DNA from: an uncultured Faecalibacterium sp.
Lineage (GTDB): Bacteria > Bacillota > Clostridia > Oscillospirales > Acutalibacteraceae
Direction: 5' to 3'
Assembly: GCA_964397395.1 (NCBI GenBank)
Contig: CAYNIN010000001.1
Span: 1,353 to 65,352 of the forward strand
DNA: 64,000 nucleotides
Numbering within the stretch: position 1 is the stretch's first letter; the number at the start of each line of letters is the position of its first letter. The position numbers and the translations under genes were made by a program. Below the pieces are notes generated by a model, which saw nothing but the letters and a program-made list of their open reading frames with translations, searched no databases and was not told the origin of the DNA. Below, in pieces: positions 36,968 through 64,000 of the stretch.

Positions 36968-37237
36968 TGTTATCCCCCTTGCTGTGTTTTCTTCACTTTA
37001 TAAGATAAATTTTTCTGCTGTTTTGTTGCATATCCCATAAAAAAATAAAAGTTCCGACCTAAAGCCGAAACCAACACCCTCCTCTTACATATTTATTATA
37101 ACATACCTTGTCAAAAAATACAAGACTTGTATTTTACTGCTTTTAAGAGTAATATGTGTGTTGTCCCAATATTTTACAGTCGCAAACTCCGTTACGGTTT
37201 GTTTCAACCTGAAAATATAAAAATCGAGGTGATAAAA

Positions 37238-39067
37238 ATGAGCCCGAGATTACGTTACACGGGCGACAGAGGGAAGGTTCCCCTTGTCAAAAACATTGCC
37301 TTTGCCTTAAAACTTGTATGGCAGGCAGATAAAAAACTTCTCATTTGCTCCCTTGCCAATTGGATTGCAGATTCGGTGTTTTCTCTTTTTGTTCAGAATA
37401 TTCTGTTTTTAAAGATACTTCTCGGAATCATTGACGCAAAGGGTAATTTCGAGGAATATTTCAAAAACCTTGTTTTGTTTCTTGTCTTATCTGTGGTGCT
37501 TAAAGGCATCATCTGGTACACCGCCTATGTAAGACAGGTTTCAACAAAAAATGTTTTAAAGGAACTTAATAACAAGGTTTTTAAAAAGGCTTTGGAACTT
37601 GACATTTCCTGCTATGAAGACCCGAAATTTTACGACAAATACCAACGTGCAACGCAAGTGCTCGCATGGGGACTTTTCGATTCCGTTTGCAATAACGTTG
37701 CCCTTGTTCTCGGCAGCATTCTCTCTTTAGCCCTTGTTGTCGGTACCGTCACAACAATTGACCCTGTTTATCTTCTTTTCCTGCTGCCTACCGGCTTTGT
37801 TTTTGTTATTGAACTTTTCAAAAGCAAACTTGTCTTTAAACGTGACAAGGAAATGACCGCCAACAACCGAATTAAAGCCTATATTCAGCGCACGGTTTTC
37901 CTTAAAGAGTATTCAAAAGATATACGCACATCAAATATCTTTGCTGTTTTAATGGTACGCTTCAAAGCGGCAATTGATGCCAACGTGGAAATTCTGAAAA
38001 GTTACGGTGTACGGCTTTTCATTTACAGTATGGTAAGTTCACTTTTCAGTGATTTTATCCCAACCATCGGCACCTACGCTCTTGCGGCATATCAGTTCGT
38101 TTTCACCAAAACCATGACTGTTTCCGCCTTTTCCGTTGTACTTTCTTCAATCAATTCCGTAAGTATATCAACAATGCGTGTTGCAAACAGTTTTCAGATG
38201 CTCTCCGAAGCGGCTTTCTACTTCCAGAATCTGCGTGAGTTTTTTGATTACGAACCTGAAATCATCGGCGGCAGCAAGAAATGTGAAGAATTTGAATCTC
38301 TTGAATTTAAAAATGTTTCTTTCCGCTACCCCTCGGCAGAAAAGAATTCTCTCACAGACGTTTCATTTAAAATAAATAAAGGCGAAACCGTTGCTCTTGT
38401 GGGTGTCAACGGTGCAGGTAAAAGTACTCTTGTCAAACTCCTGCTTCGTTTCTACGATGCCACAGAGGGTGAGATCCTCTATAACGGCATAAACATCAAG
38501 GATTATGACCTTACTTCTCTGCGTGAAAGTTACGGCGCCGTTTTTCAGGATTACAAAAACTTTGCCGTTTCCGTTTACGAAAATATTATGTGTCACGAAT
38601 GTTCCGACGAAGAAAAAGAAAAGGCGAAAACCGCCCTCATGCAAAGCGGTATATGGGATAAGATTTCTGCCCTGCAAAAAGAAGGCGATACGGTACTTAC
38701 AAGAGAATTTGAAAATGACGGTATCGGTCTTTCGGGCGGTGAAAACCAGAAAGTTTCCGTTGCCCGTCTTTTTGCAAAGGATTTTCAGTTTGCGGTTCTC
38801 GACGAGCCTTCCTCTGCCCTTGACCCGATTGCAGAATACAAGATGTATCAGAGTCTGATTGAGGTTACAAAAGGCAAAACCGTTCTCTATATATCCCACC
38901 GACTTTCTTCTGCCGTTCTTTCGGATAAAATCATCGTTTTAGGCGGCGGAAAGGTGCTCGAAAGAGGCTCCCATCAGGAACTTCTTTCAAAAGGCGGAGA
39001 GTATAGCCGTATGTTCACCCTCCAGGCATCAAGTTACAACAGAGAAAAGGAGGATGAAAATGAGTAA
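37238..39067 (+). CDS. ABC exporter, fused permease/ATPase (half-transporter 1 of a heterodimer)
   Basis: 6-TM domain plus NBD: Walker A GVNGAGKST, signature LSGGENQK, Walker B AVLDEPSS, H-loop ISHRL. I chose the ATG at 37238, after GAGGTGA. Confidence 0.88.
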   Translation: MSPRLRYTGDRGKVPLVKNIAFALKLVWQADKKLLICSLANWIADSVFSLFVQNILFLKILLGIIDAKGNFEEYFKNLVLFLVLSVVLKGIIWYTAYVRQVSTKNVLKELNNKVFKKALELDISCYEDPKFYDKYQRATQVLAWGLFDSVCNNVALVLGSILSLALVVGTVTTIDPVYLLFLLPTGFVFVIELFKSKLVFKRDKEMTANNRIKAYIQRTVFLKEYSKDIRTSNIFAVLMVRFKAAIDANVEILKSYGVRLFIYSMVSSLFSDFIPTIGTYALAAYQFVFTKTMTVSAFSVVLSSINSVSISTMRVANSFQMLSEAAFYFQNLREFFDYEPEIIGGSKKCEEFESLEFKNVSFRYPSAEKNSLTDVSFKINKGETVALVGVNGAGKSTLVKLLLRFYDATEGEILYNGINIKDYDLTSLRESYGAVFQDYKNFAVSVYENIMCHECSDEEKEKAKTALMQSGIWDKISALQKEGDTVLTREFENDGIGLSGGENQKVSVARLFAKDFQFAVLDEPSSALDPIAEYKMYQSLIEVTKGKTVLYISHRLSSAVLSDKIIVLGGGKVLERGSHQELLSKGGEYSRMFTLQASSYNREKEDENE

Positions 39068-40856
39068 GACCAAAGACAAAAAGCAGTACAGTATGCTGTC
39101 AAACATTTTCTTTTTCGTAAAACTTCTCTTTTCAATTTCCCCTTTGCTTGTTATCGGTGAATTTATCTGGGGCATACTTCTCATTCTTCCCGAAAGGCTC
39201 GTTTCGGTCATCGGTGTGAAGTATATCATCGACGTTGTTACCGAAGGCGAAAACCTTGAAAGAATCTTTGCAGCCGTCGGAGTGATTGCCCTTGTTATAA
39301 TTTTAAGCAAAGTTTTCTCCTGGCTTTTCAGAGAATTTTTCTGGAACACGGAAAAAGAAAAAGTTTACTACGGGCTTAACAAAACCCTTTACGACAAAGC
39401 CCGTGGACTTGACGAAGAAAATTACGACAATCCCGAATTTTACAACAACTTCATTCTGACAATTGAATCTTCCTCTGACAATATTCAGAATCTTTTAGGT
39501 CTTGTCAGAAACTATGTGGGCAACGTAATTTCTCTTATTACAATTGCAGGTGTTCTTCTCACCATCGACCCCCTTTGTCTTGTGATAATCGTCTTTTTCA
39601 TCGGTGCTTTTCTTCCCCTGAGCCGAAAAATCGGTGATTTACAGATGGGCAGGCGGATTGACAACACAAAGTACCACCGCAGAAGTGACTACTTCCAGCG
39701 TATTTTCTACCTTCAGGACTACTGCAAAGAGGTACGAATGAACAACATCTCCCCTCTGCTTATGGAAAGGTATAACGATGCGGCAACAGATGTTGTTAAA
39801 AATCAGAAGAAATATTGGAAAAAGATTTCTTCACTTTATATGGTACAGGAAACGGGCATACAGATTTTAGGGTTTATGTTTGTGCTCCCCCTTTATCTCG
39901 GATACTGTGTACTTGTGAAAGAGAGCCTTTCGGCAGGTGATTTCGTTGCCGCTTTCAACGGCGCTCATTCAATTGCAATTTCAATCAATTTTCTGACGGT
40001 GTGGGCAGTTGCCGTTTTCACCGAAAGAGGAAAAATGATTGAAAAGTACCGTGAATTTTTAAAATGCGACTTTAAAATCAAAGACGGCGAGAAGACCGCA
40101 GAAAAATCAGAGCCCAAAGAGATTAAAATTGAAAATCTCAACTTCACCTATCCCGGTAACGATGAGCCGACTTTAAGCGACATAAATCTCACGATAAAGC
40201 CTTATGAAAAAATTGCCCTCGTCGGCTATAACGGCGCAGGTAAAACCACCCTTACCAATCTGCTTCTTCGCCTTTATGATGCCACAAGCGGTACAATTAA
40301 AATCGGCGGTGAAGACATAAGGGAAAGTACCCTTGCTTCTCACCGTGACAGATTTTCCGCCGTTTTCCAGGACTTCCAACTTTTCTCCTGCAGTGTTGGT
40401 GAAAACGTTGCTCTCGACAAGGAGTATGACAGCGAAAAGGTTATGCAGGCTCTTTCTCACAGCGGTTTCACAAAGGAACTCAAGAAGGGTACGGAAACAG
40501 AACTTCTGCGTGAATTTGACGATGAAGGCGTTATGCTTTCCGGCGGCGAAAGCCAGAAAGTTGCAATTGCAAGAGCCTTTTATAAAAACTGTCCCTTTGT
40601 TATTCTCGACGAGCCTTCGGCAAATCTCGACCCTGTTGCAGAGTACAATCTCAACTGTGCTATGATGGAAGCGGCTGCACATAAGACCGTTATTTTCATC
40701 TCACACCGTCTTTCCACAACGGTCAATGCCGACAGAATTTATGTTATGGAAAAAGGCAGGATAATCGAAAGCGGAAGCCACGAAGAACTGATGAAGATGA
40801 AGGGAACTTATGCGTATATGTTCAATCTTCAGGCAGAAAAATATAAAACCGAATAA
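39060..40856 (+). CDS. ABC exporter, fused permease/ATPase (half-transporter 2)
   Basis: Walker A GYNGAGKTT, signature LSGGESQK, Walker B VILDEPSA. The ATG at 39060 overlaps the upstream stop by 8 nt. AAGGAGG RBS. Confidence 0.88.
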   Translation: MSKTKDKKQYSMLSNIFFFVKLLFSISPLLVIGEFIWGILLILPERLVSVIGVKYIIDVVTEGENLERIFAAVGVIALVIILSKVFSWLFREFFWNTEKEKVYYGLNKTLYDKARGLDEENYDNPEFYNNFILTIESSSDNIQNLLGLVRNYVGNVISLITIAGVLLTIDPLCLVIIVFFIGAFLPLSRKIGDLQMGRRIDNTKYHRRSDYFQRIFYLQDYCKEVRMNNISPLLMERYNDAATDVVKNQKKYWKKISSLYMVQETGIQILGFMFVLPLYLGYCVLVKESLSAGDFVAAFNGAHSIAISINFLTVWAVAVFTERGKMIEKYREFLKCDFKIKDGEKTAEKSEPKEIKIENLNFTYPGNDEPTLSDINLTIKPYEKIALVGYNGAGKTTLTNLLLRLYDATSGTIKIGGEDIRESTLASHRDRFSAVFQDFQLFSCSVGENVALDKEYDSEKVMQALSHSGFTKELKKGTETELLREFDDEGVMLSGGESQKVAIARAFYKNCPFVILDEPSANLDPVAEYNLNCAMMEAAAHKTVIFISHRLSTTVNADRIYVMEKGRIIESGSHEELMKMKGTYAYMFNLQAEKYKTE

Positions 40857-57839: not shown

Positions 57840-58313
57840 ATGGCAATTGAAAAAGTCAGGGACTATTTCAGTCAGTTCGGTATGGAAAACAGAATAATGG
57901 AATTTGACGTTTCTTCTGCAACCGTTGAACTTGCGGCAAAGGCTCTCGGCACCCAGGGAAAGAGAATTGCAAAAACTCTTTCATTTCACCTTGACAGCGG
58001 TGCAATTCTCATTGTTGCCGCAGGTGACGGCAGAGTTGACAACAAAAAATTCAAAGCAACTTTCTCACAGAAAGCAAAAATGCTCTCTTTTGACGAAGTT
58101 GAACAAATGACAGGCCATGCCGTCGGCGGTGTTTGTCCTTTCGGAATAAATGAGGGTGTCAGGGTTTATCTTGACGAAGGGCTCAAACGTTTCGATACGG
58201 TTTTTCCTGCCTGCGGAAGCAGTAACAGCGCAATTGAACTGACCGTTGAGGAACTTGAAAAATACTCAAAGGCAGACGGCTGGGTTGACGTGTGCAAAAC
58301 ACCCGAAGAATGA
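57840..58313 (+). CDS. YbaK/EbsC-family aminoacyl-tRNA deacylase domain protein
   Basis: 157 aa. TGHAVGGVCPFG motif. I chose the ATG at 57840, 9 nt after AAAGGA. Confidence 0.75.
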   Translation: MAIEKVRDYFSQFGMENRIMEFDVSSATVELAAKALGTQGKRIAKTLSFHLDSGAILIVAAGDGRVDNKKFKATFSQKAKMLSFDEVEQMTGHAVGGVCPFGINEGVRVYLDEGLKRFDTVFPACGSSNSAIELTVEELEKYSKADGWVDVCKTPEE

Positions 58314-58320
58314 TTCATAC

Positions 58321-58353
58321 AAAAAAGCGAGGCACACTTTATCAGTGTGCCTC
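58321..58353 (-). terminator. Terminator after small ORF P1 (probably also serves the ybaK-like gene)
   Basis: Stem gaggcacact / agtgtgcctc with a 5-nt loop. The minus strand continues gctttttt. Confidence 0.7.
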
Positions 58354-58375
58354 ATGTTTCGCTTTAAAGGGTTAA

Positions 58376-58504
58376 TTATTCGCCTTCAGTTTCAGTTTCT
58401 TCTGTGTCGATTGTGGGCATCTTGCTTGTGTCAACACCGAAAAGTTCAAGAATGCTCTTGATGAATGCTAAAAACTGAGCAATAACTGATTCAAGCATTT
58501 TCAT
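58376..58504 (-). CDS. Small acidic amphipathic peptide P1 (42 aa)
   Basis: My translation: MKMLESVIAQFLAFIKSILELFGVDTSKMPTIDTEETETEGE*. GGAGG lies 8 nt before the ATG. It has its own promoter and terminator and is a paralog of P2-P11. Confidence 0.75.
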   Translation of the reverse strand: MKMLESVIAQFLAFIKSILELFGVDTSKMPTIDTEETETEGE

Positions 58505-58535
58505 ATTAAAATCCTCCGTTCATATTTGTATTTAT

Positions 58536-58564
58536 ATATTAACCGATAATATATAATTTGTCAA
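58536..58564 (-). promoter_or_regulatory. Sigma-A-type promoter of P1
   Basis: TTGACA, 17 nt, TAATAT. Confidence 0.6.
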
Positions 58565-58571
58565 TATATCA

Positions 58572-58612
58572 CCGTAATAAAAACTGTCCTGCCGACTTAC
58601 CGACAGGACAGT
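58572..58612 (-). terminator. Terminator after P2
   Basis: Stem actgtcctg..caggacagt (9 bp plus 2 inner bp), followed by ttttatt on the minus strand. Confidence 0.7.
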
Positions 58613-58623
58613 TTCGTTTTTAA

Positions 58624-58758
58624 TTATTCTTCTGTTGCTGTGTACTCGTCAAGTTTTCCCTGAAGAGTTGCTGCTGCATCGGTTAAGCCGAGTGCTTCAA
58701 GAATTGTTACGAATGCTGCAAGGAATGCGAAAATTACGTTTTTTACTTCTGCGGGCAT
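58624..58758 (-). CDS. Small acidic amphipathic peptide P2 (44 aa)
   Basis: MPAEVKNVIFAFLAAFVTILEALGLTDAAATLQGKLDEYTATEE*. GGAGG lies 8 nt before the ATG. Confidence 0.75.
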   Translation of the reverse strand: MPAEVKNVIFAFLAAFVTILEALGLTDAAATLQGKLDEYTATEE

Positions 58759-58793
58759 GGTATTAGCCTCCTTTATTTATTTTTTGCAATTTT

Positions 58794-58823
58794 ATTATAT
58801 AATATTTTTATGCTGTTTGTCAA
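58794..58823 (-). promoter_or_regulatory. Sigma-A-type promoter of P2
   Basis: TTGACA, 18 nt, TATAAT. Confidence 0.6.
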
Positions 58824-58854
58824 GAGTTTTTTAAACAAACTGTGAATTTTATTT

Positions 58855-58891
58855 TAAACAAAAAAGAAGAAGCCTACCGTAAAGGCAGGCT
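58855..58891 (-). terminator. Terminator after P3
   Basis: Minus strand: aagcctgcc-tttac-ggtaggctt (with one G-U pair), followed by cttctttttt. Confidence 0.7.
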
Positions 58892-58906
58892 TGTTGCTGA
58901 ATAAAA

Positions 58907-59056
58907 ATTATTCTTCTGCTGCGATTTCTTCTCTGATTTTATCTTTAGCATTTGATAACATTTCCTTAACAAAATCGGGAGTTGCAAGACCGAGAGCGTT
59001 TAAGAGAGCTTCGACTGCTGCTGCAATGCTTTCAATAACATTAATGATAGTTGCCA
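58907..59056 (-). CDS. Small acidic amphipathic peptide P3 (49 aa)
   Basis: MATIINVIESIAAAVEALLNALGLATPDFVKEMLSNAKDKIREEIAAEE*. GGAGG lies 9 nt before the ATG. Confidence 0.75.
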
Positions 59057-59114
59057 TAATGAGTAACCTCCAAAAAAATTTGATTTAATCTGTTTGTTTT
59101 TCAGATTACGGATA

Positions 59115-59143
59115 CATTCTACAACAAATAATTCGATTTGTCA
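59115..59143 (-). promoter_or_regulatory. Sigma-A-type promoter of P3
   Basis: TTGACA, 17 nt, TAGAAT. The leader is about 50 nt. Confidence 0.6.
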
Positions 59144-59210
59144 ATAATATGTTAACATTTTTATTGTTTTTAATAAAATTATCTCACACTTTTCTTTCGA
59201 GAACCTTGTA

Positions 59211-59249
59211 CAATAAAAATTCGGCACACCTCAAAAGAAGTGTGCCGAA
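59211..59249 (-). terminator. Terminator after P4
   Basis: Stem ttcggcacac / gtgtgccgaa with a 10-nt loop, followed by tttttatt on the minus strand. Confidence 0.7.
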
Positions 59250-59268
59250 AAGCATTTGTGTTTGGATT

Positions 59269-59424
59269 TTAGTTGTTTTTACCGTCGCTGAACTGATCAA
59301 GAAGTTCGTGAGCCTTTTCGGAAAGAGTTGTTGCGAAATCGGCAAGATTAAGTTTGTTAAGGATAACAACGAAAACTTCTATAAGAGCCAATGCGGTGTC
59401 TGCAAAATTTACGGGTAATTCCAT
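59269..59424 (-). CDS. Small acidic amphipathic peptide P4 (51 aa)
   Basis: MELPVNFADTALALIEVFVVILNKLNLADFATTLSEKAHELLDQFSDGKNN*. GGAGG lies 9 nt before the ATG. Confidence 0.7.
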   Translation of the reverse strand: MELPVNFADTALALIEVFVVILNKLNLADFATTLSEKAHELLDQFSDGKNN

Positions 59425-59455
59425 AGTTATATTCCTCCTCAAATTCTATGGTTTT

Positions 59456-59484
59456 AGTCTACATTATAAATGTTCATTTGTCAA
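59456..59484 (-). promoter_or_regulatory. Sigma-A-type promoter of P4
   Basis: TTGACA, 17 nt, TAGACT. Confidence 0.55.
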
Positions 59485-59538
59485 GAGAAAATTCACAATT
59501 TATTTAATTTTAACTATTTATTTATATTACTGCAAACT

Positions 59539-59571
59539 AAAAAAGAAAAAACCTGCCCCTAAGGACAGGTT
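59539..59571 (-). terminator. Terminator after P5 (end of the P6-P5 unit)
   Basis: Minus strand: aacctgtcc-ttag-gggcaggtt (one G-U pair), followed by ttttttcttttt. Confidence 0.7.
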
Positions 59572-59607
59572 TAATTTAAACTGTTAACAACTTAAATTAT
59601 ATGGGAA

Positions 59608-59754
59608 TTATTCACCAATAGCTTCTTTAACCCATTCGCCATTGAGTTTTTCTTCAAATCTTTCAAGAACACCGGCATCAACGCCAAGCTTTGCAAGAAT
59701 TGTTGTGAAAACAGCAACAAGAGTTTCAATTAACTTTGCAATATTTTCAGGCAT
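59608..59754 (-). CDS. Small acidic amphipathic peptide P5 (48 aa)
   Basis: MPENIAKLIETLVAVFTTILAKLGVDAGVLERFEEKLNGEWVKEAIGE*. GGAGG lies 8 nt before the ATG. It is 47 nt downstream of P6 with no intervening terminator. Confidence 0.75.
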   Translation of the reverse strand: MPENIAKLIETLVAVFTTILAKLGVDAGVLERFEEKLNGEWVKEAIGE

Positions 59755-59801
59755 GTTTATATCCTCCATATTAGATTTTGTTTTTTAGAAAAAATTCAGG
59801 A

Positions 59802-59960
59802 TTATTCACCTTTAATGATGTATTCCCAGTCGTTTGCGAAATCTTCAGCCTTTTTACCTGCTTCTTCAAGTTCAGCATCTGTTGTGAAACCGATAGCTAC
59901 GAGAACCTGACCAAAGAAAGCAGCAATTTTTGCTACGAGATCCTTAAGAAAATCAGCCAT
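59802..59960 (-). CDS. Small acidic amphipathic peptide P6 (52 aa)
   Basis: MADFLKDLVAKIAAFFGQVLVAIGFTTDAELEEAGKKAEDFANDWEYIIKGE*. GGAGG lies 9 nt before the ATG. Confidence 0.75.
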   Translation of the reverse strand: MADFLKDLVAKIAAFFGQVLVAIGFTTDAELEEAGKKAEDFANDWEYIIKGE

Positions 59961-60013
59961 TATACTTTTCCTCCTTTATATAGTTAATCTGAGTTTCCTC
60001 TGATTACTCTCTT

Positions 60014-60042
60014 ATTTTATACCCAAACTATAAACTTGTCAA
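60014..60042 (-). promoter_or_regulatory. Sigma-A-type promoter of the P6-P5 unit
   Basis: TTGACA, 17 nt, TAAAAT. The leader is about 46 nt. Confidence 0.6.
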
Positions 60043-60098
60043 TAGTTTTTTAACAATTGTTTATCATCTGTTTTTTTAATCTTTTTTCTTTTAAATTT

Positions 60099-60130
60099 TA
60101 AAAAGAAAAACCTGCCTGAAGGGCAGGTTT
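60099..60130 (-). terminator. Terminator after P7
   Basis: Stem aaacctgcc / ggcaggttt with a 5-nt loop, followed by a U-run on the minus strand. Confidence 0.7.
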
Positions 60131-60141
60131 AAACTTTGTGA

Positions 60142-60279
60142 TTATGCTACGGTTCCCTCGGTTGAATCTTCTTCCGTTTCTAAACTTGCCAACCAATCTG
60201 TGATAAATGAAGGAACATCTTCACCGATAAGTGACATAAGTTTTACGATAAATTCAGCAATAATTTTAATAAAAGCCAT
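60142..60279 (-). CDS. Small acidic amphipathic peptide P7 (45 aa)
   Basis: MAFIKIIAEFIVKLMSLIGEDVPSFITDWLASLETEEDSTEGTVA*. GGAGG lies 8 nt before the ATG. Confidence 0.75.
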   Translation of the reverse strand: MAFIKIIAEFIVKLMSLIGEDVPSFITDWLASLETEEDSTEGTVA

Positions 60280-60336
60280 TTCATTTTCCTCCTGAAAAAT
60301 TATTTATCTGATTTATAAATCAAATTTATTGTTTTT

Positions 60337-60365
60337 ATTTTACATCATAAATTTGTAAAAGTCAA
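60337..60365 (-). promoter_or_regulatory. Sigma-A-type promoter of P7
   Basis: TTGACT, 17 nt, TAAAAT. The end of the leader (aaataatttttcaggaggaaaa) is nearly identical to that of P8. Confidence 0.6.
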
Positions 60366-60401
60366 CAAAATATAATAAACCAATTGTTAACATTAAGAAG
60401 C

Positions 60402-60436
60402 AAAAAAAGAAAACCTACTCTTTCGGGTAGGGTTTC
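60402..60436 (-). terminator. Terminator after P8
   Basis: Stem aacctactc / gggtagggtt (bulged, with a G-U pair) and loop tttc, flanked by an A/T run. Confidence 0.6.
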
Positions 60437-60466
60437 GGATTATACTATAATTTTTTTGCACTGAAA

Positions 60467-60613
60467 TTATTCAGCGTTTTCTGAGTCTAAATCAAAAATA
60501 CTTCCAAAGATTCTCTTAAGGCTTGCCTCAAGTTCTTCCGTATCACCTTGAATACCGAAAACAGAAAGAATGACCTTAACAAGTTTCATTGCATATTCGA
60601 GAATGGCTTCCAT
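60467..60613 (-). CDS. Small acidic amphipathic peptide P8 (48 aa)
   Basis: MEAILEYAMKLVKVILSVFGIQGDTEELEASLKRIFGSIFDLDSENAE*. GGAGG lies 8 nt before the ATG. Confidence 0.75.
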   Translation of the reverse strand: MEAILEYAMKLVKVILSVFGIQGDTEELEASLKRIFGSIFDLDSENAE

Positions 60614-60669
60614 TATGTTTTCCTCCTGAAAAAATTATTTGTCTGACAAACAATCAAACCTACGTTCAT

Positions 60670-60698
60670 ATTTTACAGTATTTTGTCTTAAAAGTCAA
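60670..60698 (-). promoter_or_regulatory. Sigma-A-type promoter of P8
   Basis: TTGACT, 17 nt, TAAAAT. Confidence 0.6.
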
Positions 60699-60730
60699 TA
60701 ATATATAACAAATCATTTTTAAAATACAGC

Positions 60731-60762
60731 AAAAGAAAAAACCCACCCGAAAGGGCAGGTTT
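60731..60762 (-). terminator. Terminator after P9 (end of the P10-P9 unit)
   Basis: Minus-strand RNA: aaccugccc-uuuc-ggguggguu, followed by uuuuucuuuu. Two G-U pairs mean the stem forms only in the minus-strand transcript. Confidence 0.7.
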
Positions 60763-60767
60763 TTAAT

Positions 60768-60786
60768 TATACTATACTATACTATA
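60768..60786. repeat. Pentanucleotide microsatellite (tatac) x 3.8 in the P9 3' UTR
   Basis: tatactatactatactata. A single tatactata occupies the equivalent position after P8 (about 60441). Confidence 0.7.
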
Positions 60787-60803
60787 ATTATTTTGTAACG
60801 AAA

Positions 60804-60965
60804 TTATTCGCCTACAGTTTCGTCAGCAGCATCATCATTGCCCATGATAACGTTCATGATCTTTGTGATGAGACCAACGATTGCTTCTACGAGAGCGCTA
60901 AGTTCTGCGTTTTCGGGAGCAACAGCTTTGATTTCAGCAATTACTTTTGCGATAGCTTCTTTCAT
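60804..60965 (-). CDS. Small acidic amphipathic peptide P9 (53 aa)
   Basis: MKEAIAKVIAEIKAVAPENAELSALVEAIVGLITKIMNVIMGNDDAADETVGE*. GGAGG lies 8 nt before the ATG. It is 37 nt downstream of P10. Confidence 0.7.
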   Translation of the reverse strand: MKEAIAKVIAEIKAVAPENAELSALVEAIVGLITKIMNVIMGNDDAADETVGE

Positions 60966-61002
60966 TGTTAAATCCTCCTTGTAAAATTTTAAGTTAAGTC
61001 AA

Positions 61003-61146
61003 TTATGCGTTGAGATCTTCGAGACCAGCGAGTTCTTTTTCAATTGCTTCCCATTCGCCAAGGTCAACAAGAAGAGCCTTAACTGCGTTTACGATTGAAA
61101 CGATGAGAGCTTCGAACTTTGTGATAAAATCTGTAATAGCCTGCAT
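61003..61146 (-). CDS. Small acidic amphipathic peptide P10 (47 aa)
   Basis: MQAITDFITKFEALIVSIVNAVKALLVDLGEWEAIEKELAGLEDLNA*. GGAGG lies 9 nt before the ATG. Confidence 0.7.
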   Translation of the reverse strand: MQAITDFITKFEALIVSIVNAVKALLVDLGEWEAIEKELAGLEDLNA

Positions 61147-61200
61147 TATACGCTACCTCCTTATAAGATTAAGTTAGGGTTATCCCCTATCTTTAGTCTT

Positions 61201-61229
61201 ATAATACACCTTAATTCACAATTTGTCAA
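61201..61229 (-). promoter_or_regulatory. Sigma-A-type promoter of the P10-P9 unit
   Basis: TTGACA, 17 nt, TATTAT. The leader is about 48 nt. Confidence 0.6.
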
Positions 61230-61330
61230 TATATTACTCAAAATTTTAATAAAATTATTTTATTAAGATTTCTTAAGGTAAATTTGCACCTCCATTTGAA
61301 GAACCGTGGGCGGTATAACTCTTTATCGTA

Positions 61331-61365
61331 CCAATGAAAAGCACCCCGTTTTTTTCGGAGTGCTT
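61331..61365 (-). terminator. Putative terminator after P11
   Basis: Stem aagcactccg / cggggtgctt with loop a7. The U tract is weak (ttcatt). Confidence 0.5.
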
Positions 61366-61372
61366 CATAATT

Positions 61373-61477
61373 TTATTCTGTTTCTTCGGAACCCAAAACT
61401 TTGTCAAGACCAATCTTACTGAGAAGATTGATAAGAGCCACTATAATTTCGTCAATCCATGCTTTAAACTGTGCCAT
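61373..61477 (-). CDS. Small acidic amphipathic peptide P11 (34 aa)
   Basis: MAQFKAWIDEIIVALINLLSKIGLDKVLGSEETE*. GGAGG lies 7 nt before the ATG. It is 28 nt downstream of the Cys-rich protein gene and is probably co-transcribed with it. Confidence 0.7.
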   Translation of the reverse strand: MAQFKAWIDEIIVALINLLSKIGLDKVLGSEETE

Positions 61478-61505
61478 TTTCTTTCCTCCTTAAATTACCG
61501 TTAAC

Positions 61506-61988
61506 TTATGCGCCCATAATTTCGTCGAATCTGAGGAATTCGAAGATTGTGTTAAAGAAGTTATCAAACCATTCTCTTAAAGTTTTAAGAACACGCTGGA
61601 ATGTGGTGACAATCTGTTCCTGCTGATCCTCACTGAAAATGGGCTTGCTGTCGTTTTCTGAGCCGTCGGAATTTACGGGACAGCATGTGCAGTTACATGT
61701 GCAGGGATAAATACCGTTACATTCGACACAGCAAGTCTGAAGGTCATAATATGTTTTGCCGTCTTCACCTACAAAAACAGTCTTTTCAACGCAAGCTGTT
61801 CTGTATGAAAGATCAAGGTTATCGCACCAGATGCAACAATGGCATTTTTCACCTGATTCTGCAGGATAGTGGTCTTCTGTACATTCGCATTTATTTGCAG
61901 CAATGGCTTCGTCTGCAGCAAAAGTTGCAGGAACAAAGAGAGTTGCAAGCATTAAAACTGCAAGTAAAACTGATAAAAACTTTTTCAT
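61506..61988 (-). CDS. Secreted cysteine-rich protein with a C-terminal amphipathic helix
   Basis: 160 aa. Signal peptide (..PATFA/ADEA). 15 Cys fall within ~75 residues (CEC..CHCCIWC..C..CCVEC..CTCNCTCC). The C-terminus is IVTTFQRVLKTLREWFDNFFNTIFEFLRFDEIMGA. GGAGG RBS. Confidence 0.75.
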   Translation of the reverse strand: MKKFLSVLLAVLMLATLFVPATFAADEAIAANKCECTEDHYPAESGEKCHCCIWCDNLDLSYRTACVEKTVFVGEDGKTYYDLQTCCVECNGIYPCTCNCTCCPVNSDGSENDSKPIFSEDQQEQIVTTFQRVLKTLREWFDNFFNTIFEFLRFDEIMGA

Positions 61989-62041
61989 AATTGTCTCCTC
62001 CGGATTATTTTACGGCTACATTGTAAACCGTTCACAGATAT

Positions 62042-62070
62042 ATTATAATTCATAACCCTTTAAAAGTCAA
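62042..62070 (-). promoter_or_regulatory. Sigma-A-type promoter of the Cys-rich protein/P11 unit
   Basis: TTGACT, 17 nt, TATAAT. Confidence 0.6.
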
Positions 62071-62079
62071 CCGAATTCG

Positions 62080-62111
62080 CAAAAAAATAAATGCCCACCG
62101 AAGTGAGCATT
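62080..62111 (-). terminator. Terminator after the 131-aa secreted protein gene
   Basis: Minus strand: aatgctcac-ttcg-gtgggcatt (one G-U pair), followed by tattttttt. Confidence 0.7.
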
Positions 62112-62122
62112 CTTCTTTGCAA

Positions 62123-62518
62123 TTAAGCAGCAACGGGACTAACGTCTTCTTCTGCGGGAGCAGTTGTTGTAACTTCTTCCTCAGTTTCGGTGCTTCCCGA
62201 GTTCATGGCACCTGCGATAAGTTCTTCAATCTGACTGATGATATCATCTTTGTCAATTACACCGAAAATCATGGCAAGTTTCACATAAACTTTAACAAGT
62301 TTAAGAGCAATCTTTGCAAACTTGAGAGCAGGACCAACCGTCCAGAAAGGAAGGTCGAGAATCCACTGAAGCGTATCATCGGTTTCGGCTTCGGAAGCAT
62401 CACCTTCAACTTCTCCTGTTGTTGTTTCGGCGTCATCTGTTACATCTTCAGCAAAAGCAACGGTTGTAACTGAGAACATCATTAAAAGTGCAAGAAAAAG
62501 TGAAATAATTTTTTTCAT
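62123..62518 (-). CDS. Secreted acidic protein carrying an internal copy of the amphipathic helix-G-h-D module
   Basis: 131 aa. Signal peptide (..TVAFA/EDV), an acidic stretch, LKFAKIALKLVKVYVKLAMIFGVIDKDDIISQIEELIAG, and an acidic Thr/Glu tail. AAGGAGG RBS. Confidence 0.75.
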   Translation of the reverse strand: MKKIISLFLALLMMFSVTTVAFAEDVTDDAETTTGEVEGDASEAETDDTLQWILDLPFWTVGPALKFAKIALKLVKVYVKLAMIFGVIDKDDIISQIEELIAGAMNSGSTETEEEVTTTAPAEEDVSPVAA

Positions 62519-62550
62519 TGGAAATTCCTCCTTGAATTTTATTTGACTTT

Positions 62551-62579
62551 ATTATACCTTTTATTAACTGAATTGTCAA
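62551..62579 (-). promoter_or_regulatory. Consensus sigma-A promoter of the 131-aa protein gene
   Basis: TTGACA, 17 nt, TATAAT. The -35 box overlaps the stop codon of the XRE gene. Confidence 0.6.
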
Positions 62580-62950
62580 CAGTTTTCTTGTTTATTAAGA
62601 CTGTTAATAAACTCAAGGGCTTTCTCTTTATCTTCTTTGTTCAGGACTCTGAAATACATAAGAAGATACCTTTCTTCTTTCGGAAGATTTGCTATCGGGT
62701 CAATTTCCACAGAAGAAAGAGCGTCGACTTTTTCTCTTCTCAGTTCGGGATTGTTTTCTTCATAACCGCAAAGATAACCGAGAGATACGTTATATATATC
62801 GCACAGTTTTTTCATAGATTCAAGAGAAGGTCTTGTTTTACCGATTTCATAAAATGTGTAGGCACTTCTGTCGATACCGAGAACATCAGCGATGTTCTGC
62901 TGAGTAAAATGATGACTCTTTCTTAAATTTCTGAGGTTTTCATCAAGCAT
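62576..62950 (-). CDS. XRE-family HTH transcriptional regulator
   Basis: 124 aa. LRNLRKSHHFTQQNIADVLGIDRSAYTFYEIGKTRPSLESMKKL is a Cro/C1 HTH, followed by a ~55-aa C-terminal extension. It is the first gene of the peptide locus on the same strand. Confidence 0.8.
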   Translation of the reverse strand: MLDENLRNLRKSHHFTQQNIADVLGIDRSAYTFYEIGKTRPSLESMKKLCDIYNVSLGYLCGYEENNPELRREKVDALSSVEIDPIANLPKEERYLLMYFRVLNKEDKEKALEFINSLNKQENC

Positions 62951-63058
62951 AGTTTCACTCCTTTTGTGTTTCTTACTTTATCTGAATGTATAATAACACA
63001 AAATGTGACATTTTTCAACATTATTTAAAAAGTTTTATTTAATTTTTTTCATCTTCCG

Positions 63059-64000
63059 TCAGTGCTCTTTGTGAAAATATGCGTATATTTTTTCACCGTC
63101 GGTTTTGCTGATACCCTTAACGGAAGAAAGGGTATCGGCATCGGCGTTTTTAATTGCGGTAAGAGTTCTGAAATGTTCCAGAAGCAGCAGTGCTTTCTTT
63201 TCACCGATACCGTCAATTTTTGTAAGAGTCATGGAAAGAGCCGATTTTCCGTGCTTTTGTTTGTGGTAGGTTATTGCATAGCGGTGCACTTCCTCCTGAA
63301 TTGCAGAAACGAGAGTAAAAACACGTCTGCCCGAATTTATGGCAATTTCCTGACCGCCCGAAGTTATGGCTCGGGTGCGGTGCTTCGAGTCCTTGACCAT
63401 ACCGAAAACGGCTATATCAAGACCGAAAGCCTCGACAACGGGTTTAACGGCATTGACCTGCCCCTGACCGCCGTCAAGCAAAATCAGATCGGGGAGTCTG
63501 CCGAAGCCCTCGTCACTCTTTTCACTTTCGGTGTATCGGTTAAGTCGGCGGCTGATAACTTCTCTCATTGAGCCGTAATCGTCCTGACCCGAAAAGCCTT
63601 TTATGGCAAATCGGCGGTATGCACTTCTCAAAGGTTGTCCGTTTCTGAAAACTACCATACCTGCCACATTGTCACTGCCTGCGGTATGGGATATATCGTA
63701 AGACTCGATGTATTCGGGCGTTTTTTTAAGACCGAGCACCTTGGCAAGTTCATCAAGCACCGCCGTTTCGCCTGCCTGTCTGCCCAGATATTCGTCAAGT
63801 TTCTGTGCCGCATTGTTAAGACACATCTCCGTCACCCTTACTTTTTCTCCCCTTTGAGGATTTAAAAGGGTAACCTTTCTGCCTTTCTTCTCTGTGAGCC
63901 ACTGAGCCACAAGTTCGCTGTCCGTAACCTCACCGTCGGTGACTATAAGGGACGGCACGGCTCTGTCGAGGGAATAGTAGGAGGTTATAAGTTCCTGGCG
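63059..64000 (-). CDS. uvrC: Excinuclease ABC subunit C, C-terminal part (5' end outside the window)
   Basis: The frame is open to base 64000. It has the UvrC endonuclease-V-like region (PDLILLDGGQGQV) and the C-terminal (HhH)2 (IDGIGEKKALLLLEHF). Confidence 0.88.
   Translation of the reverse strand, partial: RQELITSYYSLDRAVPSLIVTDGEVTDSELVAQWLTEKKGRKVTLLNPQRGEKVRVTEMCLNNAAQKLDEYLGRQAGETAVLDELAKVLGLKKTPEYIESYDISHTAGSDNVAGMVVFRNGQPLRSAYRRFAIKGFSGQDDYGSMREVISRRLNRYTESEKSDEGFGRLPDLILLDGGQGQVNAVKPVVEAFGLDIAVFGMVKDSKHRTRAITSGGQEIAINSGRRVFTLVSAIQEEVHRYAITYHKQKHGKSALSMTLTKIDGIGEKKALLLLEHFRTLTAIKNADADTLSSVKGISKTDGEKIYAYFHKEH

Follow-up and report, generated by a model that had tools for sequence, protein, structure and literature searches.

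The window analysed here is a stretch of 64,000 nucleotides (nt) from an uncultured Faecalibacterium sp., and its minus strand carries a gene cluster in which an XRE-family repressor of 124 amino acids (aa) is followed by two predicted exported proteins, S131 (131 aa) and S160 (160 aa), and then by an array of eleven tiny helical leaderless peptides, P11 and P10 to P1. Central to our analysis is the finding that amphipathic helices of the two exported proteins resemble the free peptides: the last helix of S160 is related to the peptide encoded right behind it, and the core of S131 appears similar to the peptide family in a weak but specific manner. The most likely interpretation, to which we would assign a probability of roughly 40%, is that S131 and S160 are exported and use their helices to act at the cell envelope, and that the abundant free peptides either pair with those helices or work next to them, at a membrane or an interface. 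All genes of the cluster, and all coordinates given for them below, are on the minus strand as read from the open reading frames (ORFs) of the window, in agreement with the earlier description of three same-strand genes upstream of a peptide array.

The strong part of the evidence comes from S160 (61506..61988), which is organised as a Sec-type signal peptide, a Cys-rich domain, an acidic/Gln linker and a C-terminal amphipathic helix. This helix module (residues 120-160, 61509..61631, ending in FQRVLKTLREWFDNFFNTIFEFLRFDEIMGA) is the best-conserved part of the family. When compared with the 34-aa free peptides of two related loci, L002 and L003 (MLENFEAYANGIVEWFKKLFTIIYEFLDDIGVEV), it gave a score of 33.4 (probability 94%, P=8.9e-8), with 12.9 for the reversed control and at most 14.8 for shuffles. 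The P11 group, comprising P11 of the window and the orthologous peptides encoded 24-27 nt behind S160 in L001, L007 and L011, scored 21.1 against the same helix (P=3.1e-4; reversed 11.0; shuffles 9.0 ± 1.9, at most 15.0), and the P11 and 34-aa groups match each other as well (probability 88%, P=3.5e-6). With clean controls in both comparisons with the helix, the last helix of S160 can be called a relative of the peptide that follows it. Further, a hidden Markov model (HMM) of the S160 C-terminus matches free peptides of this kind at E=2e-4, and matches no peptide of the window at E<10.

The peptide family as a whole adds nothing to this relation. In all, 60 different small peptides of the window and of the related loci, each cut back to the start codon that a ribosome-binding site precedes, were aligned into a pooled profile, and the S160 helix scored 16.6 against it, lower than its own reversed sequence (19.6), as expected of generic amphipathic-helix similarity. 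Given the higher reversed control, the pooled profile was rejected as evidence for S160, and the subgroup analysis alone is informative.

P11 itself (61373..61477) is a 34-aa leaderless peptide whose start lies 28 nt after the S160 stop codon and is preceded by an AAGGAGG ribosome-binding site. The S160 gene has a promoter at 62042..62070 (TTGACT-17-TATAAT, 11 of 12 matches in the scan); the 28-nt gap contains no terminator-like site, the only promoter-like site nearby (61468..61440, 9 of 12) falls inside P11, and a terminator-like hairpin (GAAGCACTCCG-A7-CGGGGTGCTTTTC, 61336..61366), found by direct reading, with one stem mismatch and not reported by the scan, ends the pair. These features support the earlier proposal that P11 is probably co-transcribed with S160.

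The relation of S131 (62123..62518) to the peptides is fainter. Homologs of this protein, which was studied through an alignment of them (alignment A2), an AlphaFold model and a charge map, number 183 at E<=1e-3, and uncultured Clostridia are the source of every one. Its predicted Sec-type signal peptide (residues 1-23, MKKIISLFLALLMMFSVTTVAFA before ED) has n, h and c regions and an AXA site (AFA before ED), and is followed by an acidic disordered linker, the motif LDLPFWTV, which is invariant across the family, a Lys-rich helix (62-84), an F-G-V-I-D turn, a second helix (90-108) and an acidic Thr/Glu/Pro tail. The sequence-only reading had described an acidic protein with a cleavable signal peptide and a helix-FG-h-D hinge, and this is borne out by the MKK-hydrophobic-AXA pattern, a pI of 4.05 (25 D+E against 8 K+R) and residues 64-91, LKFAKIALKLVKVYVKLAMIFGVIDKDD. 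The AlphaFold model, computed from a 27-sequence alignment, is of low confidence overall (mean predicted local distance difference test, pLDDT, 60); it shows a signal helix and places further helices at 62-84 (block pLDDT 76-83) and 90-108, with a pLDDT of 67-83 over the two-helix block and a disordered linker and tail.

It is this helix-FG-helix module of S131 (residues 62-108, 62195..62335) that is similar to the free peptides. In hhalign the S131 core scored 21.7 against the pooled peptide profile (P=3.3e-4, probability 38%), pairing KFAKIALKLV.VYLKVAKIFG of S131 with the peptide helix up to the F-G hinge. The reversed core scored 12.2 and 100 column shuffles gave 8.2 ± 1.7 with a maximum of 12.9, so that 0/100 reached the real score, which lies about 8 standard deviations above them. 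In a database of 6049 ORFs, the iterated peptide HMM matches S131 proteins at E=2e-3 to 9e-3 (window S131 at E=8.9e-3, over residues 66-114), and at least 25 of the 31 sub-threshold matches of the S131-core HMM are peptides of the family. The string A-x-KLVKV is common to P8 of the window and S131.

S131 and S160 show no similarity to each other. The cluster has at least two classes of amphipathic helix of about 25 residues, linked only through the peptide family. The S160 helix terminates in LRFDE. The earlier reading, which had one and the same module appearing both as free peptides and fused to exported proteins, must therefore be divided: it stands strongly for S160 with the P11 and 34-aa peptides and in a weak but specific form for S131, and it fails for S160 against the pooled family and for S131 against S160. 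Likewise, the amphipathic helix proposed for the end of S160 is present but lacks the F-G-h-D hinge, and the comparison of the C-terminal modules with P1-P11 succeeded for the S131 core and for S160 with the P11 subgroup but not for S160 with the family as a whole.

The genes themselves are real: the ORFs come with ribosome-binding sites, promoters and terminators, and orthologs differ most often in the third position of their codons. Between the window and L001, the differences at positions 1/2/3 number 31/21/50 for S131, 52/33/75 for S160 and 33/24/70 for XRE, and those for a P3-type peptide of L007 and L001 are 8/5/20; all three head genes are conserved in relatives. Scanning and direct reading together resolve eleven transcription units, namely XRE, S131, S160-P11, P10-P9, P8, P7, P6-P5, P4, P3, P2 and P1, the first three constituting the head of the cluster; the ten units that follow XRE agree with the ten promoters counted earlier. 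The region 58000-63200 holds 37 promoter-like sites (15.9 ± 4.8 in shuffles) and 15 terminator-like sites (3.5 ± 1.5 in shuffles). S131 has a perfect promoter (TTGACA-17-TATAAT, 62551..62579), kept with its short leader in most relatives, and an intrinsic terminator (62089..62112) with a 10-bp stem, 4 GC pairs and a T-run. Since most units combine a near-consensus promoter, an AAGGAGG-type ribosome-binding site and a terminator of their own, strong and independent expression is indicated.

The ten peptide genes P10 to P1 (58376..61146) occupy eight of these units and encode leaderless acidic peptides of 42-53 aa, for which the family HMM has hits in relatives. Across the cluster the free peptides are 29-53 aa long, with a pI of 4.05-4.51, no signal peptide and a hydrophobic moment of 0.35-0.54 over 18 residues. 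For all helices of the cluster this moment is 0.35-0.73, and the helices in the AlphaFold models agree.

In contrast to the peptides, both S131 and S160 have the signature of Sec secretion: MKK and 17-20 hydrophobic residues, followed by AFA before ED in S131 and by TFA before AD in S160 (MKKFLSVLLAVLMLATLFVPATFA before AD, a predicted signal peptide), conserved across both families. Matches of their profiles to known proteins in the N-terminal part fall solely on known signal-peptide regions, those of the A2 profile being the signal peptides of Fab constructs in the PDB.

The Cys-rich domain of S160 (residues 34-103, 61680..61889) contains exactly 15 Cys together with a conserved His, in columns that are invariant in alignments A1 and A4, and 13 of these Cys are invariant in the closest five homologs. 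The earlier description of a 160-aa signal-peptide protein with 15 Cys thus holds, with the span corrected from about 75 residues to 70. The pattern CxC..H..CHCCxxCxN..YxTxC..CCxxCxGIxPCxCxCxCC is largely conserved across a family that numbers 5 homologs by word-based search and 47 representatives among 1.84 billion proteins by exhaustive search; in 44 of the 47, the Cys domain and the C-terminal helix occur together. The domain is found in tandem in two relatives (twice in P0153, three times in P0149) and, in two BspA-LRR proteins, P0188 (956 aa) and P0190 (656 aa), at the N-terminus following a signal peptide. Its occurrence always after a signal peptide, its tandem copies in some relatives and its place at the head of these two surface-type proteins fit an extracellular location, and the domain would seem to be a mobile extracellular module. 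We also observed that P0188 and P0190 end in CSCNCHK..FFWKIINFFQKLF..CxCG..H, that is, in another Cys motif and amphipathic helix; these C-termini have no match to the S160 helix HMM (E=0.8 and 4.9).

The CxC, CC and CxxC spacing of the domain, and its 15 Cys and conserved His within 70 residues, recall metallothionein-like domains. However, it matches no Pfam, NCBIfam or PDB family and sits behind a Sec signal peptide in a strict anaerobe; metal binding is a possibility.

Taken together, the preferred interpretation would run as follows. S131 and S160 would be exported by the Sec route and, by means of their amphipathic helices, remain at the envelope or act on it, with the S131 helix of charge +5 masked by flanking acidic segments (-12 and -10) and the Cys domain of S160 held in place by its C-terminal helix. 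The free peptides, which near-consensus promoters, strong ribosome-binding sites and individual terminators would supply in large amounts, may pair helix to helix with the related segments of S131 and S160, or act beside them at the membrane or an interface in the manner of surfactant-like or membrane-active peptides.

Several observations weigh against this interpretation. To begin with, the peptides are leaderless and the locus encodes no exporter; the only ATP-binding cassette (ABC) system in the stretch examined upstream of the array is a pair of genes (646 and 600 aa, 37127-40856) containing ABC-type ATPases, which lies 17 kb away and is unlinked in relatives. The earlier claim of a unit acting outside the cytoplasm is reasonable for S131 and S160 and conjectural for the leaderless peptides. 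The acidity of the peptides (pI 4.0-4.5) is unlike that of most membrane-active bacterial peptides. The similarity of S131 to the peptides is weak, and the 48-aa class, the one most often encoded behind S131, gives no clean signal with it (17.3; reversed 14.9, best shuffle 23.2). The structure models of S131 and S160 are both of low confidence and not good enough to search for folds with, that of S160 being poor (pLDDT 55) with moderate confidence in the C-terminal helix 120-159 alone. Members of the cluster also exist without their supposed partners, as the related loci make plain. Lastly, searches of Pfam, NCBIfam, PADLOC and PDB sequences yielded signal-peptide or chance matches alone for S131, S160 and the peptides, none of which fits a family there, and a full-text literature search found nothing on this family.

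Three undescribed protein families are defined here irrespective of whether the helices pair: the S131 LDLPFW family, the S160 Cys-rich domain family and the small-peptide superfamily. This places the system outside known kinds. The cluster is lineage-specific to Acutalibacteraceae among the uncultured gut Clostridia, and its families are confined to members of the Acutalibacteraceae that are abundant, uncultured inhabitants of the gut in ruminants and other animals.

How far the components depend on one another can be judged from 40 loci retrieved by a genome scan with the S131 alignment, nearly all of them from metagenome-assembled genomes labelled Acutalibacteraceae or Oscillospiraceae. The order uvrC-XRE-S131 is found in 40 of 40 loci; a homolog of S160 lies behind S131 in 17, with small peptides of the family after it; and, on contigs of sufficient length, the end of the locus is usually marked by a ybaK-like gene and pcrA. 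The window follows the same plan, with uvrC directly upstream of XRE and, beyond P1, a ybaK-like deacylase gene on the plus strand and then pcrA. Peptides were counted wherever 1.2 kb or more of sequence was available downstream. The 19 such loci that lack S160 hold no peptide (nine loci) or a single one (ten loci), and the 14 with S160 hold 0, 0, 1, 1, 3 (seven loci), 4, 4 and 6; this window, which has S160, holds 11. Arrays of two or more peptides occur solely in loci with S160, whose presence goes with the expansion of the array.

Exceptions occur. XRE-S131 stands without any peptide in the nine loci just mentioned, it has unrelated genes directly downstream in, for example, L010, L024, L025 and L040, and S160 stands without peptides in L035 and L044, so that helix pairing cannot be obligatory. 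S160 and three peptides have also been found away from XRE-S131, beside a gene for an extracytoplasmic function (ECF) sigma factor, in one genome (L002 and L015, on the same contig) and in a second lineage (L003-L006). Since they occur apart in this way, XRE-S131 is best regarded as a fixed core and S160 with its peptides as a separable accessory block. Moreover, the invariant uvrC-XRE-S131 block includes a housekeeping gene, and synteny within one bacterial family can be a matter of inheritance and not of coupling; the absent partners and this possible shared descent both tell against the pairing of S131 and S160 with the peptides. The proposal that the locus is a functional unit is therefore upheld as regards the constant uvrC-XRE-S131 order and the arrays that accompany S160, and not as regards the peptide-free loci and the separable S160 block. 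At the displaced sites (L002 9611-11292, L003 4477-6127), S160 and its three peptides adjoin a divergent ECF sigma factor gene and one for a beta-propeller protein, and a conserved basic 53-aa ORF (MADKAKRDRIMKKARSV...) lies just upstream of S160.

These distributions bear on the alternative that the small peptides remain in the cytoplasm, for instance at the inner face of the membrane or with a cytosolic partner, in a role unrelated to S131 and S160, the neighbourhood reflecting shared descent and the helix similarity common origin or convergence. The lack of a signal peptide and of a nearby exporter would follow naturally, as would the loci in which S131 or S160 lacks peptides, the housekeeping gene within the invariant block and the failure of S160 to outscore its reversed sequence against the pooled family. 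Such a separation is nevertheless hard to square with the joint relocation of S160 and peptides to another genomic site in two lineages, with P11-type genes placed 24-28 nt behind S160 in four genomes and related to its last helix, and with the restriction of arrays to loci with S160. We regard it as fairly unlikely.

The charge pattern of S131 raises a different prospect, namely a bacteriocin- or toxin-like competition locus in which S131 would be a Sec-exported cationic antimicrobial helix, masked by acidic segments until processed at LDLPFW, the peptides further toxins or immunity partners, and XRE the switch. In the charge map the first helix of S131 carries Lys every 3-4 residues, giving +5, between segments of -12 and -10; the peptides vary strongly in copy number and sequence between genomes, and the promoters are strong. 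Yet no transporter, processing protease or membrane immunity gene is found in the locus, the peptides are anionic, the bacteriocin models of Pfam and NCBIfam are unmatched, and the site between uvrC and pcrA is a fixed chromosomal one across the retrieved loci and not a variable island, which together make this explanation improbable. Leaderless class II bacteriocins such as enterocin L50, aureocin A53 and lacticin Q are strongly cationic and are encoded with ABC transporter and immunity genes. They share with the present peptides the leaderless helical form, the length of 30-55 aa and the frequent occurrence of several per locus, but the peptides here are acidic, transporter and immunity genes are missing, and the flanking genes are uvrC, the ybaK-like deacylase gene and pcrA.

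Closer functional analogies, albeit without membership in either case, are offered by the phenol-soluble modulins and the chaplins. The phenol-soluble modulins of staphylococci (alpha, beta and delta-toxin types) are leaderless amphipathic helical peptides of 20-45 aa whose genes lie in tandem in the core genome and which are produced abundantly; those of the beta type are acidic, and the exporter of the modulins is encoded elsewhere in the genome. The present peptides resemble them in being leaderless, short, amphipathic, helical and encoded by tandem genes. They differ in having the helix at the N-terminus with an acidic tail and a promoter for each gene or gene pair, and none of the peptides tested matches a Pfam or NCBIfam model. 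To our knowledge, phenol-soluble modulins have no related Sec-exported fusion proteins. The chaplins of Streptomyces present one module in short free and long cell-wall-anchored forms, all with Sec signal peptides and of a beta-rich amyloid nature. The likeness lies in a small module that stands alone and also forms part of longer, exported fusion proteins able in principle to anchor or nucleate a surface assembly, whereas here the short forms are leaderless and helical, the fold type differs and there is no sortase signal.

A bolder version of the preferred interpretation can be framed, in which S131 and S160, the latter with a Cys-rich and possibly metal-binding head, would serve as exported anchors of a new extracellular helical assembly, presenting their helices at the surface and nucleating or capping bundles, pores or films of peptides that leave the cell by an unrecognised route, with expansion of the array tuning the composition. 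We consider this version speculative and, on balance, unlikely.

It was also considered whether the peptide genes could be type I toxin-antitoxin modules, that is, small membrane toxins held in check by antisense RNA, with S131 and S160 as unrelated neighbours. Tandem peptides of 30-50 aa with a hydrophobic N-terminal helix and a charged tail, and short hairpins in the 5' leaders, are in keeping with such modules. The helices, however, contain several charged residues and are amphipathic instead of transmembrane, the ribosome-binding sites are strong and mostly unpaired, the peptides are related to exported proteins, no consistent convergent promoter occurs on the plus strand, and an Rfam search gave no antitoxin RNA above threshold. 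On account of the helix chemistry, the lack of antisense promoters and the lack of an Rfam match, this explanation was rejected as very improbable.

The XRE gene (62576..62950) encodes a repressor in which an N-terminal HTH_3 domain precedes a conserved C-terminal one of about 60 aa. Its residues 6-60 match Pfam HTH_3 (PF01381) at E=2e-14, with 53.8 bits against a cut-off of 23, confirming the earlier assignment as a helix-turn-helix (HTH) regulator of the XRE type. The gene has its own promoter (TTGAAA-17-TATTAT with an extended TG, 62990..63018, from the promoter scan), the spacer of which contains the palindrome AAATGTGACATTT at 63001-63013, a single exact match in the window. A CAC..GTG-type element recurs at this position in the relatives, and the two together fit autoregulation; the XRE protein is probably a two-domain repressor that regulates its own gene.

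Control by XRE of S131 or the array, as the sequence-only reading proposed, is possible in principle and finds no support in our comparisons. The overlap which that reading described is indeed there in the window, the XRE stop codon TGA (62578-62576) lying within the -35 hexamer of the S131 promoter (62579..62551). It is unique to the window, however, for in relatives 5-130 nt separate the stop codon from the promoter downstream of it, in some cases with an intervening terminator. A direct search found the palindrome of the XRE promoter neither in the other promoters nor elsewhere in the locus, palindromes in the XRE and S131 promoters are not above shuffles, and the two promoters share 7.26 bases within the same genome against 7.44 between genomes, showing no co-variation. 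With the overlap unconserved, the palindrome unshared and nothing extra in common between the promoters, adjacency is all that links XRE to the control of the locus. An anti-repressor pair of the SinR/SinI type was tried and rejected, the comparison of the XRE C-terminal domain with the peptides giving an hhalign score of 8.8 (P=0.21).

The XRE protein could instead be unrelated to the peptides and act as a damage-responsive repressor resembling CapH/DdrO, linked to the adjacent uvrC or to targets elsewhere; this could hold whichever explanation of the peptides is correct. Residues 2-122, practically the full length, match PADLOC capH at E=1.8e-10, in a library without a curated cut-off, and PDB matches to DdrOC, PezA and ImmR span the HTH only. 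The likeness to CapH/DdrO-type repressors may extend to the domain plan, an N-terminal HTH_3 and a C-terminal domain of about 60 aa. The position of the gene directly behind uvrC in 40 of 40 retrieved loci, the conserved palindrome-like element confined to its own promoter, the absence of an operator shared with the S131 promoter and the occurrence of S160 with peptides where XRE is missing all speak for such independence. Opposed to it are the equally invariable adjacency of XRE to S131, the failure to identify an operator at uvrC likewise, and the want of the defining partner: no CapP- or IrrE-type metalloprotease gene is adjacent, the neighbours of XRE being uvrC and S131 in the window and in 40 of 40 loci. 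On these grounds we find it somewhat doubtful that XRE has nothing to do with the peptides. As a separate observation, the capH match, the DdrOC structures, the position after uvrC and the palindromic promoter are features of a repressor that may be damage-responsive and cleaved by a protease.

Should pairing between the free peptides and the helices of S131 and S160 prove real, Gram-positive anaerobes would have a novel means of building or decorating their surface out of leaderless mini-proteins, and the finding would point to an unrecognised export route. The S160 helix and P11 constitute a concrete, testable pair for such studies. The locus further illustrates how arrays of small proteins can grow by duplication around an exported relative. 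In this regard, P1 (58376-58504), the last gene of the array, resembles the lone peptide behind S131 in simple loci (the MDFIKEI..ILxLI..FGxD class). Since P1 resembles the class that trails S131 and P11 corresponds to the peptide that trails S160, the array of the window may have grown by insertions between S131 and P1.

A few further features of the peptides deserve mention. P9 (60804-60965) deviates from the rest: its family helix is preceded by an additional N-terminal helix, MKEAIAKVIAEIKAVAPEN, and only residues 18-52 align with the family HMM. Small helical ORFs detected weakly by the HMM occur in relatives as well (L011 5180-5323, L028 8673-8801, L034 8713-8835, L042 8735-8857 and L016 8640-8759; for example, MSFDAIFEALESFVIRIYEIIANVFKMFETPDEAGEEATE), and the superfamily is probably wider than counted. 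Finally, the 5' leaders of independently transcribed peptide genes contain a short hairpin close behind the -10 box, in many cases with TAAAT after it. For P3 it is seen at 59086-59108; P6, P7, P8 and P10 have a similar element in their leaders, as do most peptide genes of L002-L042, and the S131 leader is without it. The stems vary across genomes with the pairing kept (for example, TCAAGG/CCTTGA, GGG/CCC, AAAGGT/ACCTTT), and the hairpin may be a 5' stem-loop that stabilises the mRNA.

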